IMG/VR virus record: IMGVR_UViG_2541047956_000008
Span: 1 to 30,932 of that record
Reading direction: 5' to 3' (one strand)
DNA length: 30,932 nucleotides
From: a virus
Lineage: Duplodnaviria > Heunggongvirae > Uroviricota > Caudoviricetes
In this document: in pieces, positions 5,122 to 29,860 of the stretch
Layout of the letters: each line of letters opens with the position of its first letter
How positions within the stretch are numbered: the stretch's first letter is position 1
Translations under genes and position numbers: made by a program
The notes under the pieces: generated by a model
What the model was told of the DNA's origin: nothing
What the model saw: only the letters and a program-made list of their open reading frames with translations
Databases searched by the model: none

Positions 5122-5814
5122 TTAATTGTGTCGCTTAAGGGTTTGTGACTGACTGATTAAGACCTTTCCAAAGACCATAAACCGATGTTCGTTTTCGCTG
5201 GTAATTCCCCATTCGCGGTAAATCTGATTATCAGAAATTACCAGCAGTTTATCAGGTATCATTTGCAGTCGTTTGACGTAAATTTTATCATCAAAACCAA
5301 ATACATATATACCATCCCCATCAAACTGATTGATACTGATATCAACGAAGATGAGATCTCCTGGCTCAATGGTTGGACACATACTGTCCCCACGAACGTT
5401 GATAACTTTAATGTGATTTGCTGGTCGTCCACCAAACATCGATACAGCATTATCAGTTCTGTATTCAATGGCATGAATCACATCAATGACATCACCGCCC
5501 TGGATAAGGCCATTTCCCGCACTGGCACTGACATCCAGCATTTCAATACGGAATACATCCTTCACCTGCGCAACATCCTCACTAATACTGTTTTTACATA
5601 CAGTATTACTTTTGAGGTCTGAGGTAAAGAGATCAGCAATATCAACACCTAAGCTCCTGGCAATATTACTCAGGGCTTGTTCAGTGAATTGTTTCTGCTT
5701 ACCTGTTTCGAGGCGCGAGATATTCGCCGCATCCACTCCTATTGCTTCAGCGAGATCGGCGATTTTCATGTTCTTCGCCTGGCGAAGTTGTCTGACTCGA
5801 TTTCCTATGTTCAT
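5122..5814 (-). CDS. CI-like prophage repressor (N-terminal XRE HTH, C-terminal S24 LexA-like peptidase domain)
   Basis: 230-aa ORF: N-terminal HTH (IADLAEAIGVDAANISRLETGK), C-terminal GDSM serine motif (VRGDSMCPTIEPGDLIFVD) and downstream Lys (YVKRL). Divergent from the Cro-like gene. Confidence 0.85.
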   Translation of the reverse strand: MNIGNRVRQLRQAKNMKIADLAEAIGVDAANISRLETGKQKQFTEQALSNIARSLGVDIADLFTSDLKSNTVCKNSISEDVAQVKDVFRIEMLDVSASAGNGLIQGGDVIDVIHAIEYRTDNAVSMFGGRPANHIKVINVRGDSMCPTIEPGDLIFVDISINQFDGDGIYVFGFDDKIYVKRLQMIPDKLLVISDNQIYREWGITSENEHRFMVFGKVLISQSQTLKRHN

Positions 5815-5911: not shown

Positions 5912-6172
5912 ATGCAATCACCATTACGGAATGTGCGTAAGGCGCACGGATTTACTTTGCAGCATGTTGCTGCGGGCGTTCAGGTCAATCCAGCGACGCT
6001 GAGTCGTATTGAAAGACTGGAACAAATTCCATCTATCGATCTTGCAGAACGTCTGGCCAATTTTTTTAAGGGTGAAATCAGCGAAATGCAGATTCTTTAT
6101 CCGGCACGTTTTCAATCTAGCCAAAACCAGAATGGGTTTAAACCACAGGAACAGGAGGTAAGCCGTGGGTAA
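5912..6172 (+). CDS. Cro-like XRE-family HTH regulator
   Basis: 86-aa ORF; GGAGG RBS 5-6 nt upstream of ATG 5912; HTH motif (FTLQHVAAGVQVNPATLSRIERLEQ). Divergent from the repressor. Confidence 0.7.
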   Translation: MQSPLRNVRKAHGFTLQHVAAGVQVNPATLSRIERLEQIPSIDLAERLANFFKGEISEMQILYPARFQSSQNQNGFKPQEQEVSRG

Positions 6173-6716
6173 GCATCACTGGAAAGTGGAAAAACAACCT
6201 GAGTGGTACGTGAAAGCTGTCAGAAAAACTATCGCGGCATTGCCTGGGGGTTACGCTGAAGCTGCTGACTGGCTGGATGTAACAGAGAACGCTTTATTCA
6301 ACCGCCTTCGTGCAGATGGCGATCAGATTTTCCCGCTGGGATGGGCAATGGTTTTACAGCGCGCGGCTGGCACTCACTACATTGCGGATGCTGTCGCACA
6401 GTCTGCTGGTGGGGTGTTTGTATCGCTTCCTGAAATTGAGGAAGTAGAGAACGCCGATATAAACCAGCGCCTGCTGGAAGTCATCGAACAGATCGGGAGT
6501 TACTCAAAGCAGATTCGTTCGGCAATCGAAGATGGGGTAGTGGAGCCACACGAGCAGACAGCAATTAATGATGAGTTGTATCTGTCAATTTCGAAGCTCC
6601 AGGAGCATGCAGCACTGGTCTACAAAATCTTTTGCGCTCCAGAAAAGAGTGACGCCCGCGAGTGTGCAGCTCCGGGCGTCGTGGCGTTTTGTGTCTGTGG
6701 AGAAACTAACGCATGA
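6165..6716 (+). CDS. Putative regulatory protein in the cII position (YdaT-like, tentative)
   Basis: 183-aa ORF with GTG start at 6165 preceded by AGGAGG; overlaps the Cro-like stop. Family assignment is recalled and weak. Confidence 0.4.
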
Positions 6717-7051
6717 GCAGTTTAACAACACACTACCGTCGCTCGCAACTGATTGCGCTTCCTGTACCGGGTGGAAAAGCGAAGGTGGAGTATTGCTATG
6801 CAGTGAATGTACCAGGTGACAGGGAAATTGTAACCCACAGCTTTGCAGAGTGGGCTGTGGGTGATTTCAACCGGCAGAAGGAGACAGTCCTTTGCGACAA
6901 GTTAACCGCTGGTTCAAAGATCACTACGGAGTGCCCGTCAGAGTCATTCGTTGGGAGCCGGAAACACAACGGGTTATCTACCTCCGTGAAGGCTATGAAC
7001 ATGAATGCTTCAGTCCGCTCGAACAGTTTCGTCGTAAATTCAGGGAAATAG
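6713..7051 (+). CDS. Hypothetical protein; C-terminal half overlaps the next gene in another frame
   Basis: ATG 6713 overlaps the upstream stop (ATGA coupling) and has a GGAG RBS. The last ~50 codons are Ser-rich and low-complexity, so the true stop is uncertain. Confidence 0.3.
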
Positions 7052-7104
7052 AGGTCGGTCATGAGCCTGTTAATGACATCCCAGCCCATTGTGATAAATC
7101 GTGA
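6892..7104 (+). CDS. Small conserved-looking phage protein (70 aa; DUF4222-type, tentative)
   Basis: TTG start at 6892 preceded by AAGGAG (6877-6882, 9-nt spacer). Compact protein rich in W/Y/charged residues ([23 protein letters not shown]...). Confidence 0.45.
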
Positions 7105-8053
7105 TCTTGCATGCCGTATTGGTCTGAATGAGGCAATTGTGTTGCAGCAGCTTCATTACTGGCTGAATGAAACGAATTCAGGCACTGAGCATGGCGGAAT
7201 TCGCTGGGTTTATAACACGACAGAACAGTGGCTGGAGCAGTTTCCGTTCTGGTCAGAGTCCACTCTGAAACGCACATTTGCAAGCCTGAAATCACTTGGG
7301 GTTTTGCGTCGCGAGCAACTCAATAAATCGAAGCGTGACATGACCAACTTCTACACGATCAACTATGAAAGTGAGCTTTTAGAAGAGGTCAAAGTGAACG
7401 AATCAATCAGGTCAAAATGCACTTCTCCATCGGGTCAAAGTGACCTGATGGATGGGCGCAAAATGACACGATCCATTGGTTCAAAACGACACGCTGTCAT
7501 CGGGTCAAAATGGCCCAATGATCTTACAGAGAATACAACAGAGATTACTACAGAGAATAAAACCTCTTCTCGTCCGGACGCTTCGCAACCGGACACGCAA
7601 ACGGCTGAACAGGAGTTTTTAACTCGCCATCCTGATGCGGTTGTATTCAGCCCTAAAAAGCGCCAGTGGGGAACGCAGGATGATTTGACCTGCGCACAGT
7701 GGCTCTGGAAAAAAATCATCGCCCTGTACGAGCAGGCCGCCGAATGTGACGGCGAGGTGGTTCGTCCCAAAGAACCGAACTGGACAGCCTGGGCAAACGA
7801 AATTCGCCTGATGTGTGTGCAGGATGGTCGTACTCACAAACAAATCTGCGAGATGTACAGCCGCGTCAGCCGCGATCCGTTCTGGTGCCGTAACGTGCTC
7901 AGCCCGTCGAAGTTGCGGGAAAAATGGGATGAGCTTTCCCTGCGCTTATCGCCGTCCGTCAGCACGCACACAGAAAAACGTGAAGACCCGTACTTCAAAG
8001 CCAGTTACGACAACGTGGACTACAGCCAGATCCCGGCAGGATTCAGGGGGTGA
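7061..8053 (+). CDS. Replication initiator (O-like winged-helix N-domain, DnaT-like C-terminus) containing the origin iterons
   Basis: 330-aa ORF; N-terminal winged-helix-like region, internal iteron array, C-terminal Trp-rich region (PNWTAWANEIRLM...KLREKWDEL). Organised like lambda O with ori inside the gene. Confidence 0.65.
   Translation: MSLLMTSQPIVINRDLACRIGLNEAIVLQQLHYWLNETNSGTEHGGIRWVYNTTEQWLEQFPFWSESTLKRTFASLKSLGVLRREQLNKSKRDMTNFYTINYESELLEEVKVNESIRSKCTSPSGQSDLMDGRKMTRSIGSKRHAVIGSKWPNDLTENTTEITTENKTSSRPDASQPDTQTAEQEFLTRHPDAVVFSPKKRQWGTQDDLTCAQWLWKKIIALYEQAAECDGEVVRPKEPNWTAWANEIRLMCVQDGRTHKQICEMYSRVSRDPFWCRNVLSPSKLREKWDELSLRLSPSVSTHTEKREDPYFKASYDNVDYSQIPAGFRG
7386..7516 (+). repeat. 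Iteron array (candidate phage origin of replication) inside the initiator gene
   Basis: Five to six direct repeats of GGTCAAA(A/G)TG-like motifs at ~7389, 7410, 7433, 7455 (degenerate), 7478 and 7503, spaced 21-25 bp, followed by an AT-rich stretch at 7521-7560. Confidence 0.6.
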
Positions 8054-8055
8054 TC

Positions 8056-8544
8056 ATGAGTCTGTTAAATGACGTTCAGAAATTCATTGAAGCCCATCCG
8101 GGCTGTACTTCCGGAGACATTGCGGATGCTTTTGCAGGTTACTCACGGCGGCACGTTCTGCAGTCAGCAAGCAAGTTACGTCAGAGTGGGCGTGTGGCTC
8201 ACCGTTGTGAAGGAGATACACGCAGACATTTCCCGCGCCTGACTGAGAGAGCGCAGGAGCCGGAACCACAATCTGTTCGTGAAACCAGACCTGTGCGCAA
8301 TTTCTATGTCGGCACTAACGACCCCCGGGTGATTTTGTGCCTGACCCGCCAGGCTGAAGAACTGGAGTCCAGGGGCTTATTCCGTCGAGCTGCAACGGTG
8401 TGGATGGCGGCATTCCGTGAAAGCCACTCCCAGCCAGAACGAAACAATTTTCTGGCGCATCGTGAGCGGTGCTTACGGAAAAGCAGCAGGCGCGCTGCAT
8501 CGGGTGAAGAGTGGTATCTGTCAGGGAATTACGTGGGGGCTTAA
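8056..8544 (+). CDS. Putative transcriptional regulator with PerC-like C-terminal region (tentative)
   Basis: ATG 8056 after GGGGG; C-terminal motif AEELESRGLFRRAATVWMAAF resembles the PerC family signature (recalled). Confidence 0.4.
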   Translation: MSLLNDVQKFIEAHPGCTSGDIADAFAGYSRRHVLQSASKLRQSGRVAHRCEGDTRRHFPRLTERAQEPEPQSVRETRPVRNFYVGTNDPRVILCLTRQAEELESRGLFRRAATVWMAAFRESHSQPERNNFLAHRERCLRKSSRRAASGEEWYLSGNYVGA

Positions 8545-8870
8545 TGACGACGTTAACTCAATGCCAGCAGCAGGTGCTGGATATGCTGATTTCTTACCAG
8601 AAAGAACGTGGCTTCCCGCCAACCAATCAGGAGGTGGCTACCATGCTGGGATACCGTTCAGTGAATGCAGCGGTGGAGCATCTTCGCGCACTGGAGAAAA
8701 AAGGCGTCATCACGATAAAGCGTGGCGTGGCACGGGGGATAACGCTTCATACCGCGGTGAAGGACGACGACAGCGAGGCGGTCGGGATTATCCGCTCACT
8801 GCTTGCCGGTGAGGAAAACGCCAGGCTGCGTGCAACCCACTGGTTACATGAGAGAGGCCTGAAAGTATGA
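8544..8870 (+). CDS. LexA N-terminal DNA-binding-domain protein lacking the S24 peptidase domain
   Basis: 108-aa ORF from ATG 8544 (TAATG overlap with upstream stop). Sequence LTQCQQQVLDMLISYQKERGFPPTNQEVATMLGYRSVNAAVEHLRALEKKGVITIKRGVARGITL aligns by eye with the LexA winged-helix domain; no protease domain follows. Confidence 0.6.
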   Translation: MTTLTQCQQQVLDMLISYQKERGFPPTNQEVATMLGYRSVNAAVEHLRALEKKGVITIKRGVARGITLHTAVKDDDSEAVGIIRSLLAGEENARLRATHWLHERGLKV

Positions 8871-9256
8871 AGCTGATCCTGCCTTTCCCGCCCAGCGTGA
8901 ACACGTACTGGCGACACCCCAACAAAGGGGCATTTGCTGGTAAGAGCCTGATAAGCGCGGCGGGGCGAAAATTTCAGAGCGCGGCGTGCGCAGCAATAGT
9001 TGAGCAGTTACGTCGTCTGCCAAAACCAACGTCGGCACCTGCTGCAGTGGAGATCGTGTTGTTTCCTCCGGATAACCGGATCCGCGATCTGGACAACTAT
9101 AACAAGGCGCTGTTTGACGCGTTGACCCACGCGGGTGTGTGGGAAGACGACAGACAGGTGAAAAGAATGCTGGTGGAGTGGGGACCGGTTATCCCGAAAG
9201 GGAAGGTCGAGATCACCATCAGTAAGTACGAGAAAACGGCGGGTGCAGCCGCCTGA
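8867..9256 (+). CDS. rusA: RusA-family Holliday junction resolvase
   Basis: 129-aa ORF; LPFPPSVNTYWRH...RDLDNYNKALFDALTHAGVWEDDRQV matches RusA signature regions. 4-bp overlap with the upstream gene. Confidence 0.85.
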   Translation: MKLILPFPPSVNTYWRHPNKGAFAGKSLISAAGRKFQSAACAAIVEQLRRLPKPTSAPAAVEIVLFPPDNRIRDLDNYNKALFDALTHAGVWEDDRQVKRMLVEWGPVIPKGKVEITISKYEKTAGAAA

Positions 9257-9275
9257 TCAAGAGGAGAAACGAAGT

Positions 9276-10085
9276 ATGAATAATCTGATGGTCATTGATG
9301 GTATTGAAGTTCGTCGTGATGCTTATGGGCGTTACAGCCTGAACGATCTGCACAGGGCTGCCGGGGGAGAACAAAAAAACCGCCCGAAATACTGGCTCTC
9401 CAATAAGCAAACCTGTGAATTGATTGAACAACTTTTCACCGAGGGTGGAATTCCGCCTCTGGAACAAAATCAACCAGTTAGCGTCATTAATGGCGGAAAT
9501 AACCAGGGGACGTATGTCTGCAAAGAACTGGTGTATGCCTATGCAATGTGGATCAGCCCGTCATTCCATCTGAAGGTGATCCGTACTTTCGACATGGTAA
9601 CCAGCGCACCGGAAAAATTATCCGGACAGGCTGCTGACAAGATGCAGGCTGGCGTGATCCTGCTGGACTTTATGCGCCGGGAATTAAATCTGTCTAACTC
9701 ATCAGTGCTTGGAGCCTGTCAGAAGCTTCAGGAGGCTGTTGGCTTACCGAATCTGGCACCGCGCTATGCCATTGATGCTCCTGCTGACGCGCCTGATGGC
9801 TCAAGTCGCCCCACGCTGTCGCTGAGTGCACTGCTGAAGCAGTATGGTATCCGCCTGACGGCTAATCAGGCATATCACCAGATGGTGAAGCTGGGGATCG
9901 TTGAACAACGCGAACGATACAGCCGTACCGCGATTAACAACATCAAAAAATTCTGGTCGCTGACGGCGAAAGGCTGCATGTTCGGCAAGAACATCACCAG
10001 TCCTGCAAATCCGCGCGAGACGCAGCCGCATTTCTTCGAATCCCGATTCCCTGAGCTGTTAAAGCTGCTCGATACCGTTCATTGA
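9276..10085 (+). CDS. KilA-N domain protein (antirepressor-like)
   Basis: ATG 9276 preceded by GAGGAG; N-terminal region (YSLNDLHRAAGGE...RPKYWLSNKQTCELIEQL...GTYVCKELVYAYAMWISPSFHLKVIRTFD) is typical of KilA-N. Confidence 0.7.
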   Translation: MNNLMVIDGIEVRRDAYGRYSLNDLHRAAGGEQKNRPKYWLSNKQTCELIEQLFTEGGIPPLEQNQPVSVINGGNNQGTYVCKELVYAYAMWISPSFHLKVIRTFDMVTSAPEKLSGQAADKMQAGVILLDFMRRELNLSNSSVLGACQKLQEAVGLPNLAPRYAIDAPADAPDGSSRPTLSLSALLKQYGIRLTANQAYHQMVKLGIVEQRERYSRTAINNIKKFWSLTAKGCMFGKNITSPANPRETQPHFFESRFPELLKLLDTVH

Positions 10086-10086
10086 G

Positions 10087-11082
10087 GTGACCGTGAGAGC
10101 ACTACTGACCCCTGAAATTGCCCCGCGTATGGGGATCGTATTGTTCAGGCCAGGTTCAGAGCTGATGCCCCTGTTTATGCAGGGGCGTGTTCTGCTGGAG
10201 CCTGAGCCGGAACGTTATTCATCTTTCGCCAGTGGTGCCGTTCCGGCGGCATCACAACCGCTGGCGGATGATCCTGCCGTTCGGGCCGTGTTCCGCAATG
10301 AGGCAGTGATCCGTCGTGCTGGTGGCGTGGAATGTCTTGAAAGCTGGTTACTTCGTGAAAAAGGCTGCCAGTGGCCTCATTCCGACTGGCACAGCGAGAA
10401 CATGACCACAATGCGACACGCTCCGGGCGCAATCCGTCTGTGCTGGCACTGCGATAACCAGCTGCGCGATCAGTTCACGGAACGGCTGGAATCAATGGCA
10501 ACGGATAACTGTGCCCGCTGGGTGTTGTCTGTTGTGCGTCGGGATCTCGGTTTTGATGATAGTCACGTTGTGACAATGCCGGAACTGTGCTGGTGGCTGA
10601 TTCGTAATGACCTGGCGGATGCCTTACCGGAAAGTGCAGCCCGTAAGGCACTGAGATTACCAAAGCCTGTTGTGCCGTCTGTCACCCGGGAAAGTGACCT
10701 TGTGCCTTCGGTTCCTGCCACCAGCATCATCCAGGATAAGGCAAAAAAGGTGCTGGCGCTGAAAGTGGATCCGGAGTCGCCGGAGTCTTTTATGTTACGC
10801 CCAAAACGCCGCCGCTGGGTTAATGAAAAGTACACGCGCTGGGTTAAGACACAGCCGTGTGCATGTTGTGGAAAGCCTGCTGATGATCCCCACCACCTGA
10901 TAGGCCACGGTCAGGGTGGAATGGGTACAAAAGCGCATGACCTCTTTGTGTTGCCTTTGTGCAGAAAGCATCACGACGAGCTGCATGCGGATACCGTGGC
11001 ATTTGAAGAGAAGTATGGCTCCCAGCTGGAGCTGATATTTCGTTTTATCGATCGTGCGCTGGCAATTGGCGTATTGGCGTAA
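10087..11082 (+). CDS. DUF968-like protein with C-terminal Cys/His cluster
   Basis: 331-aa ORF (GTG start); C-terminus CACCGKP...HHLIGHGQGG...CRKHHDELH. Sits directly upstream of Q, as DUF968 genes do in other lambdoid prophages (recalled). Confidence 0.5.
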   Translation: MTVRALLTPEIAPRMGIVLFRPGSELMPLFMQGRVLLEPEPERYSSFASGAVPAASQPLADDPAVRAVFRNEAVIRRAGGVECLESWLLREKGCQWPHSDWHSENMTTMRHAPGAIRLCWHCDNQLRDQFTERLESMATDNCARWVLSVVRRDLGFDDSHVVTMPELCWWLIRNDLADALPESAARKALRLPKPVVPSVTRESDLVPSVPATSIIQDKAKKVLALKVDPESPESFMLRPKRRRWVNEKYTRWVKTQPCACCGKPADDPHHLIGHGQGGMGTKAHDLFVLPLCRKHHDELHADTVAFEEKYGSQLELIFRFIDRALAIGVLA

Positions 11083-11095
11083 GTGGAGAACGAGC

Positions 11096-11848
11096 ATGAA
11101 CCTTGAAGCCTTACCAAAATATTACTCCCCAAAATCTCCAAAATTGAGCGATGACGCACCGGCGACAGGCTCAGGTGGTTTAACGATTACGGATGTGATG
11201 GCTGCGCAGGGGATGGTGCAGTCGAAAGCACCGCTTGGGTTTGCCTTATTCCTGGCAAAAGTTGGTGTTCAGGATCCTCAATTTGCGATTGAAGGTCTGC
11301 TCAATTACGCGATGGCACTGGATAACCCGACATTGAACAAATTGAGTGAAGAAACCCGGTTACAGATCATCCCTTACCTTGTGAGTTTTTCCTTTGCTGA
11401 TTATTCCAGGTCTGCGGCAAGTAAGGCTCGCTGTGAGCATTGTGCTGGTACTGGATTTCATAATGTATTGCGCGAAGTGGTGAAGCACTCCAGAAGCGGG
11501 GAATCTGTTATCAAGGAAGAGTGGGTGAAGAAACTATGTCAGCATTGTCATGGTAAGGGAGAAGTCAGCACAGCGTGCAGAGGGTGTAAGGGTAAAGGTA
11601 TTGTCCTGGATGAAAAAAGAACCCGGCTTCATGGCATGCCTGTTTATAAGATTTGTGGGCGTTGCAATGGAAACCGGTTTAGCCGTTTACCAACCACACT
11701 GGCGCGGCATCATGTCCAGAAGCTGGTACCAGACCTGACGGATTATCAGTGGTACAAAGGATATGCAGATGTCATTGATAAACTGGTGACAAAGTGCTGG
11801 CAGGAAGAAGCATATGCTGAGGCGCAATTAAGAAAAGTGACGAGATAA
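11096..11848 (+). CDS. Late-gene antiterminator Q-like protein
   Basis: 250-aa ORF from ATG 11096 (GGAGAA RBS), Cys-rich zinc-binding region (CEHCAGTG...CQHCHGKG...CRGCKGKG...CGRCNG). Immediately upstream of a promoter plus terminator pair and the lysis genes. Confidence 0.65.
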   Translation: MNLEALPKYYSPKSPKLSDDAPATGSGGLTITDVMAAQGMVQSKAPLGFALFLAKVGVQDPQFAIEGLLNYAMALDNPTLNKLSEETRLQIIPYLVSFSFADYSRSAASKARCEHCAGTGFHNVLREVVKHSRSGESVIKEEWVKKLCQHCHGKGEVSTACRGCKGKGIVLDEKRTRLHGMPVYKICGRCNGNRFSRLPTTLARHHVQKLVPDLTDYQWYKGYADVIDKLVTKCWQEEAYAEAQLRKVTR

Positions 11849-29315: not shown

Positions 29316-29860
29316 AAACGGGGGCTGAAGCCATCCGGGCGCTGTCCACACAGGTCCCGGCGTTTCGTCAGAAACTGAATGACGGCTGGTATCAGGTGCG
29401 CATTGCCGGGCGTGATGCAGGTGAAACCGAATTATCTGCCCGTCTTAATGAGCCGCTGGCTAATGGTGCCGTGATCCACATCGTGCCGCGTCTGGCGGGA
29501 GCTAAAAGTGGCGGTGTGTTTCAGGCAGTGCTGGGTGCGGCGCTGATTGCGGTGGCATGGTGGAACCCTGTGGGCTGGCTGGGTGCCGCGGCTGTATCGG
29601 GCATGTATGCGGCAGGGGCCAGTATGATCCTGGGTGGTGTGGCCCAGATGCTGGCACCGAAAGCCCGGACGCCCACAGCGACCAGCACGGATAACGGTAA
29701 GCAGAACACCTATTTCTCATCACTGGATAACATGGTTGCCCAGGGCAATGTTCTGCCTGTTCTGTACGGTGAAATGCGCGTGGGGTCTCGTGTGGTTTCT
29801 CAGGAGATCAGCACGGCAGATGAAGGGGACGGTGGTCAGGTTGTGGTGATTGGCCGCTGA
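29213..29860 (+). CDS. I: Tail assembly protein I-like
   Basis: 215-aa ORF overlapping the 3' end of K; ubiquitin-like N-region and hydrophobic Gly/Ala-rich C-region; start could instead be the ATG at 29252. Confidence 0.7.
   Translation: MAATHTLPLASPGMARICLYGDLQRFGRRIDLRVKTGAEAIRALSTQVPAFRQKLNDGWYQVRIAGRDAGETELSARLNEPLANGAVIHIVPRLAGAKSGGVFQAVLGAALIAVAWWNPVGWLGAAAVSGMYAAGASMILGGVAQMLAPKARTPTATSTDNGKQNTYFSSLDNMVAQGNVLPVLYGEMRVGSRVVSQEISTADEGDGGQVVVIGR

Follow-up and report, generated by a model that had tools for sequence, protein, structure and literature searches.

The early operon of the lambdoid prophage described here encodes a 108-residue protein that combines a LexA-type DNA-binding domain, without the LexA autoprotease, with a conserved C-terminal two-helix module that is absent from LexA. 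Both halves show low dN/dS, which points to a functional two-part protein under purifying selection rather than a broken LexA. Tentatively, we propose that this protein serves as a surrogate of LexA that RecA does not inactivate. The gene had been singled out in an earlier note on the window, by which we mean the whole stretch of 30,932 nucleotides analyzed (positions 1 to 30,932 of the IMG/VR record IMGVR_UViG_2541047956_000008). It is already known, catalogued and abundant, and what is added here is the conserved C-terminal module, the cassette behavior of the gene, the clade-specific recognition helices and a map of the SOS boxes in this group of phages.

Gene Boundaries and Genomic Context

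The window comprises the early and morphogenetic region of a lambdoid prophage, with lysis and head-tail genes following the Q-like gene (Table 1). Translation of the LexA-like gene starts from the ATG at 8544 and stops at the TGA at 8868-8870. The GTG further upstream, at 8511, is not the start, because the homologs begin at the same MTTLT as the product read from 8544. A run of G residues at 8535-8539 is located at the expected position of a ribosome-binding site for this ATG. The coupling to the PerC-like gene described in the earlier note has a real overlap behind it, as the last A of the TAA that terminates the PerC-like gene is also the first base of the ATG. At the other end, the 4-nt overlap with rusA is also seen in mEp390 and in the Cronobacter, Citrobacter and Salmonella relatives.

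TABLE 1. Coordinates of the LexA-like gene, its parts and its neighbors in the window.
Feature	Position	Strand	Description
cI-like S24 repressor	5122-5814	-	
SOS box TACTGTTTTTACATACAGTA	5586-5605	.	Candidate target only; sole SOS box of the window, inside the cI-like gene
cro-like gene	5912-6172	+	
YmfL and YmfM homologs	6165-7051	+	
O-like replication gene	7061-8053	+	
PerC/YfdN-like gene	8050-8544	+	Upstream neighbor in operon; Pfam PerC E=7e-8; PHROG 1324
TAATG	8542-8546	+	Stop of PerC-like gene overlapping start codon of LexA-like gene
LexA-like protein without protease domain	8544-8870	+	Complete ORF, 108 codons plus TGA
LexA-type winged helix-turn-helix, residues 1-68	8544-8747	+	Pfam PF01726; Foldseek
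Recognition helix, residues 40-52	8661-8699	+	VNAAVEHLRALEK; LexA counterpart PNAAEEHLKALAR
Acidic linker HTAVKDDDS, residues 69-77	8748-8774	+	Predicted disordered; pLDDT <50 for residues 71-76
Two-helix module, residues 78-103	8775-8852	+	No LexA counterpart; model helices 78-87 and 93-103
ATGA	8867-8870	+	Start of rusA overlapping stop of LexA-like gene
RusA Holliday-junction resolvase	8867-9256	+	Downstream neighbor; Pfam RusA E=1e-14; PHROG 34
KilA-N gene	9273-10085	+	
DUF968/HNH gene	10087-11082	+	
Q-like antiterminator	11054-11848	+	

A few other features of the region were also considered. The homologs of YmfL and YmfM, at 6165-6716 and 6713-7051, are of the e14 prophage type, as annotated in phage SKA5, and YmfM is a reported SOS-inducible inhibitor of cell division. 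A promoter annotated inside the PerC-like gene of SfV was set aside; it is weak, is further decayed in the window (TTGCGC to TGGCGC) and gives no support for expression in the lysogen. A search for defense systems with PADLOC returned nothing beyond a sub-threshold CARF match.

A LexA DNA-Binding Domain Without the Protease

The earlier note had interpreted the product of 8544-8870 as the N-terminal winged helix of LexA, ending before any S24 autoprotease domain, and this was borne out, with the gene limits exactly as given. The Pfam model LexA_DNA_bind (PF01726) matches residues 1-65 over its full length (1-65 of 65, E=2.9e-19, 69 bits against a cut-off of 23.7), and the best solved relative in a sequence search of the PDB is the N-terminal domain of E. 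coli LexA (1lea, E=7e-16). Pairwise alignment to E. coli LexA with BLASTP gave 43% identity over 90 residues (E=8e-22). Furthermore, an AlphaFold model for which 31 family members were used (pLDDT 83) was matched by Foldseek to LexA on DNA (3jso) with an rmsd of 1.0 Å over 68 residues and 50% identity. In this model, the winged helix consists of helices at residues 6-22, 28-35 and 40-52 and strands at residues 56-58 and 66-68.

The alignment ends at LexA residue 86, just beyond the A84-G85 cleavage site, which aligns with A88-G89 of the phage protein. No Pfam match to Peptidase_S24 was obtained in the 108 residues, and the S24 peptidase and dimerization domain with its Ser-Lys dyad, which characterizes LexA proper, is absent. 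Likewise, the score against the NCBIfam equivalog for lexA (TIGR00498) is 70.8 bits and thus below the cut-off of 110.95, for which reason the protein is not to be regarded as LexA proper. Since the autoprotease is missing, the LexA-like protein cannot be inactivated by self-cleavage stimulated by RecA.

A Conserved C-Terminal Two-Helix Module

The conserved module at the C-terminus was missed in the earlier note. It is connected to the winged helix by a linker (residues 69-77) that varies in both length and sequence across the family, and its two helices are modeled with a block-mean pLDDT of about 85. The tail follows the consensus EAVxLLRALLAxExxARERAIxxLxxRG, in which A97 is invariant and L101 nearly invariant, and it is kept in relatives with 38-58% identity from Salmonella, Citrobacter, Cronobacter, Klebsiella, Enterobacter and Atlantibacter. 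Overall, the length of the gene and the tail are conserved across at least eight genera. Estimates of dN/dS were 0.06-0.25 for the gene; of its two parts taken separately, the winged helix had 0.09-0.23 and the tail 0.07-0.22.

Winged-helix regulators commonly dimerize through helices that follow the wing. In the phage protein, the module probably associates with another copy of itself or with some partner, because so many conserved hydrophobic positions cannot be buried by a lone two-helix hairpin, and we infer that it is a dimerization device. No PDB match in the Foldseek search extended over the C-terminal module. Matches of the full-length model to MarR, ArsR and DtxR were discarded as not meaningful, with rmsd values of 5.9-12 Å.

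The remote homologs recovered include proteins of 140-350 amino acids (P0132, P0133, P0149, P0152, P0153, and P0156) in which two LexA_DNA_bind stretches are matched in tandem. Such tandem domains may be another way to provide a protease-less LexA domain with two DNA-reading heads.

Distribution and Annotation in Phages and Genomes

The whole protein, tail included, is covered by PHROG 362 (residues 1-108 against model positions 1-106 of 106, E=1e-59). Proteins with 95-100% identity are annotated in about 50 phage records, with carriers such as SfV (orf42), SfII, SfIV, mEp460, cdtI, 1720a-02, SKA5, Kati and the Stx2a and Stx2c phages, under names such as “LexA DNA binding domain protein,” “LexA-like protein” and “transcriptional repressor.” Of the 5426 complete E. 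coli genomes, 2233 (41%) carry the gene, in up to four copies, and PGAP assigns it to “LexA family transcriptional regulator.” A copy with 100% identity is located in the IMG/VR contig IMGVR_UViG_2541047914_000010 (L139) at 8544-8867, the coordinates that the gene has in the window. The earlier note was unaware of this annotation, which exists in thousands of genomes. A full-text literature search found no functional study of the enterobacterial LexA-like family.

Operon Position and Cassette Behavior

The gene order, which runs from the replication gene over PerC, methyltransferases in some phages, the LexA-like gene, RusA, a KilA-N or ANT gene in some phages and DUF968 to Q, is kept in phages of E. 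coli, Shigella, Salmonella, Citrobacter and Cronobacter. The order is kept also in mEp390, which is without the PerC-like and KilA-N genes and in which the LexA-like copy is just 47% identical. In phages from E. coli, Salmonella, Citrobacter and Cronobacter, the LexA-like gene is invariably found after the replication gene and before Q, and it is read in the same direction as the rightward early operon. Because of this location in the replication-to-Q operon, we infer that it is co-transcribed with the rightward early operon and expressed after infection or induction.

Within this constant framework, the gene behaves as a cassette. Most relatives carry a Dam cassette of 654 bp between the PerC-like and the LexA-like genes, which is absent from the window (8542-8546, compared with 29610-29620 in SfV, L002). 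Among the IMG/VR loci that share the cI allele of the window, the PerC-RusA interval contains the LexA-like gene alone, as in the window, in 14 loci, Dam together with the LexA-like gene in 44 loci, and Dam alone in 3 loci (5 by a direct search for Dam). The junction GGGGGCTTAATGA after PerC is the same irrespective of whether it is followed by Dam, as in SfV, or by the LexA-like gene. The LexA-like gene is thus an optional delayed-early cassette, and Dam and the LexA-like gene have been gained and lost independently at the GGGGGCTTAATGA junction.

A different arrangement was found in a prophage remnant in Klebsiella (L006-L009, 4385-6624), which presents the SOS box TACTGTTTATTTATACAGTA, dinI, an ORF, the LexA-like gene, an ORF of 67 amino acids and DUF968, with rusA absent. 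The LexA-like copy is here 130 amino acids long, with an N-terminal extension and the helix NAVLLH, and the surrounding sequence makes it appear to be part of a LexA-controlled operon.

Recognition Helix

[quoted passage not shown] These papers name S39, N41, A42, E44 and E45 as contact residues, of which N41 and E45 are the base readers, with R28 contacting the backbone. The phage protein has S, N, A, V and E in the five positions, so that four of the five are kept, and R64 of the wing is also kept in the alignment to LexA. The fifth position, E44, is substituted in every member of the family (by V, A, N, T, L or F), and the window protein has N in place of R28.

The helix further differs between the clades, with NAAVEH in E. 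coli, NAAAEH in Salmonella and mEp390, NAATDM in Cronobacter and NAVLLH in Klebsiella, while a copy from Citrobacter freundii with 65% identity and the same gene order has the helix NTIAGH. All of these hosts belong to the Enterobacterales and should share one SOS box, and strict mimicry of LexA should therefore freeze the helix. A helix that varies from clade to clade would fit diverging specificities better than LexA mimicry.

The earlier note had suggested that a non-cleavable protein of this kind could occupy SOS boxes. From the residues involved this is plausible, because N41 and E45 are kept and because isolated N-terminal domains of LexA bind SOS boxes and repress, and must be cleared by ClpXP. 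The LexA N-terminal domains also form a mutual interface on the operator. Against an occupancy of SOS boxes stand the loss of E44 and R28, the differences in the helix from one clade to another and the absence of an SOS box from many carrier phages.

SOS Boxes and Operator Scans

A search of the prophage for SOS-box-like sites, as proposed in the earlier note, identified a single site in the window. This box, inside the cI-like gene, departs from the consensus at three positions, and 100 shuffled sequences produced no match. More generally, boxes recur at four sites in related phages, namely in this cI allele, before dinI, over the first codons of a late DNA methyltransferase gene and before the KilA-N gene, and this phage group thus seems, as judged from the sites, to be wired to LexA at several points.

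The box in the cI-like gene is spanned by a 26-bp palindrome at 5583-5608, TAATACTGT-N8-ACAGTATTA, within the part of the minus-strand gene that codes for the linker. It is kept in mEp460 and SfII; five of the nine amino-acid changes in the SfII cI are located in the linker, and yet CTGT-N8-ACAG is intact and even nearer to the consensus. In IMG/VR, the box is inside the same cI allele in 117 of 120 loci, which were retrieved by an exact match to the box, so this count does not represent independent conservation. A LexA roadblock and an internal promoter are two possibilities for this site, and we found no description of a cI-internal SOS box.

Two of the other sites were inspected in the related loci. 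An insert of about 190 bp between rusA and the KilA-N gene contains the SOS box TACTGTATTTATGAACAGTG in 5 of 80 related loci (L157, L182, L195, L199, and L203), at about +740 to +2113 from the start of the LexA-like gene. The equivalent segment in the window, 9257-9272, is a 16-bp gap with no box. In these five loci, the position of the box suggests that the antirepressor-like KilA-N gene is probably under a LexA-controlled promoter. The SOS box TACTGTAAAAATAAACAGTG overlaps the first codons of the late DNA methyltransferase gene downstream of Q in SfV (L002, 34170-34189), in mEp460 (L003, 41021-41040) and in 26 of 80 IMG/VR loci; this methyltransferase gene is absent from the window.

We also considered the possibility that the LexA-like gene is paired with the cI box. 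The gene does occur in each of the 13 phage records that have this cI allele, but the early region as a whole is common to these records. The pairing was rejected, as IMG/VR loci were found in which the box occurs with PerC-Dam-RusA and no LexA-like gene, and as the majority of the carriers possess different cI alleles that lack the box. Nor is an SOS box an obligatory partner of the gene, being absent from 11 of the 26 related loci that have the full 10 kb on each side.

Operators other than SOS boxes were sought among the inverted repeats of the window, the palindromes common to four phage genomes of the E. coli clade and the palindromes with 7-nt arms near the LexA-like gene in 12 loci from six clades, and none of these three scans gave a conserved candidate besides the SOS box. 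The palindromes that recur in the shared module, of which DUF968 contains TGCCAGT-N12-ACTGGCA and CCCTG-N6-CAGGG while further ones are in PerC and Dam, lie within coding sequence and were dismissed, because they are explained by coding constraint or shared ancestry. The SOS half-site pattern ACTGT-N8-ACAGT is present in all four of the E. coli-clade phage genomes, and its follow-up found no box position common to all carriers.

Proposed Role and Alternative Explanations

Our working hypothesis, to which we give somewhat less than an even chance, is that the protein is a RecA-insensitive surrogate of LexA, which dimerizes through its tail, binds CTGT-type palindromes and holds LexA-controlled promoters shut during lytic growth. 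The protein would have originated from a gammaproteobacterial LexA that was truncated just past the self-cleavage point, and its private two-helix module would most likely supply the dimerization that LexA obtains from the protease domain. It would be made solely after infection or induction, at a time when the host LexA is being destroyed. The N-terminal cleavage fragment of LexA carries a -VAA tail that is a signal for ClpX; with no S24 domain and no -VAA end, the phage protein should resist both the RecA-stimulated cleavage and the ClpX route. The dimer would then bind SOS boxes or close variants of these, and the promoters kept shut could be those of host SOS genes and of phage genes wired to LexA, as exemplified by the box in its own cI gene. 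A more far-reaching version, which we regard as rather unlikely, is that a surrogate proof against RecA and ClpXP, made by induced lambdoid prophages including Stx2 phages, silences anew the host SOS regulon and the LexA-controlled genes of rival prophages, such as antirepressors under SOS-box control, during replication of the phage, with the module replacing the dimerization domain.

The main alternative, which we consider doubtful, is that the LexA fold has been retuned to a non-SOS operator in a phage-specific regulator that represses or activates a phage promoter, for example in the timing of the nin or late region. Such a change would agree with a helix that changes between clades under a constant gene order, with an E44 that is never retained and with the many carrier loci without an SOS box. 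However, the palindrome scans of the shared module across clades gave no conserved operator, the E. coli clade keeps the two key base readers of LexA, and the gene is dispensable, as indicated by the PerC-Dam-RusA variants without it. There is also no obvious vacant regulatory role, because late expression in lambdoid phages is handled by Q antitermination. A precedent is nonetheless offered by gp6 of the Bacillus tectivirus GIL01, a truncated LexA homolog that binds a palindrome unlike the LexA box and activates the late promoter P3 (PMC6182141). It is improbable that the protein is a DNA-binding accessory of RusA or DUF968/HNH rather than a transcription factor, for example one that would target or restrain these enzymes on DNA. 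The overlap with rusA is conserved across genera and DUF968 is the sole neighbor retained in the Klebsiella remnant, but co-location in the dense and mosaic nin region is weak evidence, RusA and DUF968 co-occur without the LexA-like gene, and structurally the protein resembles a sequence-specific repressor domain.

Interference with LexA or RecA through protein contacts, whether as a heterodimer with LexA, as a decoy or as a substrate in trans, is very improbable. The motif LLAGE aligns with VAAGE, where LexA is cleaved, and is shared by the E. coli, Salmonella and Citrobacter clades, and the alignment does span the cleavage site; however, conservation of the AG motif does not extend to the Klebsiella, Cronobacter and mEp390 clades, and the segment is predicted to be helical rather than a cleavage loop. 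The heterodimer with host LexA, which was raised in the earlier note, is unlikely because the dimer interface of LexA is the C-terminal catalytic domain, and this domain is missing from the phage protein. Finally, we find it hardly credible that the gene is an inert leftover from the truncation of a LexA or cI-type repressor gene. It does resemble a LexA cut just after the cleavage site, and phages manage without it, but a remnant is contradicted by the low dN/dS of both halves, by the length and tail conserved in the eight or more genera and by the intact copies in the complete E. coli genomes.

If the proposed surrogate does bind SOS boxes, a common prophage gene would let phages switch the SOS response off inside the induced cell, with possible effects on the induction of Shiga-toxin phages, competition between prophages, mutagenesis and responses to antibiotics. 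If it has an operator of its own, it would be a second independent case, after GIL01 gp6, of a phage-private regulator with the LexA fold.

Comparison With Known Systems

The nearest counterparts are found in the phages related to SfV. SfV orf42, mEp460 gp46, SfII_44, the “LexA-like protein” of SKA5 and PHROG 362 are all the same gene, with 95-100% identity and the same position in the operon. Most of the SfV-type relatives have the Dam cassette between PerC and the LexA-like gene, whereas the window is without it, and the annotations in these phages have been made by similarity only.

With E. coli LexA (1lea, 1jhh, and 3jso), the phage protein shares the N-terminal winged helix, at about 50% identity over 68 residues, with S39, N41, A42, E45 and the wing R64 all kept. 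It differs by the loss of the S24 catalytic and dimerization domain, by its private two-helix C-terminal module and by the substitutions of E44 by V and R28 by N, and its gene is phage-borne and accessory. The LexA fragment 1-84 and the LexA(Ind-) mutants resemble the phage protein in having a DNA-binding activity that is no longer open to removal by RecA. The fragment still binds and represses and is cleared by ClpXP via signals exposed by the cleavage, whereas the phage protein ends in -GLKV and has the extra module. The LexA(Ind-) mutants, in contrast, retain the full dimerization domain.

Like the LexA-like protein, GIL01 gp6 is an uncleavable phage protein from an early operon that is essentially a LexA DNA-binding domain. 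It has 66 residues and no tail, whereas the LexA-like protein carries an extra tail of 40 residues; its host is Gram-positive, and, unlike the enterobacterial family, it has a known target and a known role as an activator. BLASTP of the LexA-like protein against gp6 gave no alignment at E<=100, and because of this lack of detectable similarity the two proteins are regarded as independent truncations of LexA, with gp6 as the closest functional precedent.
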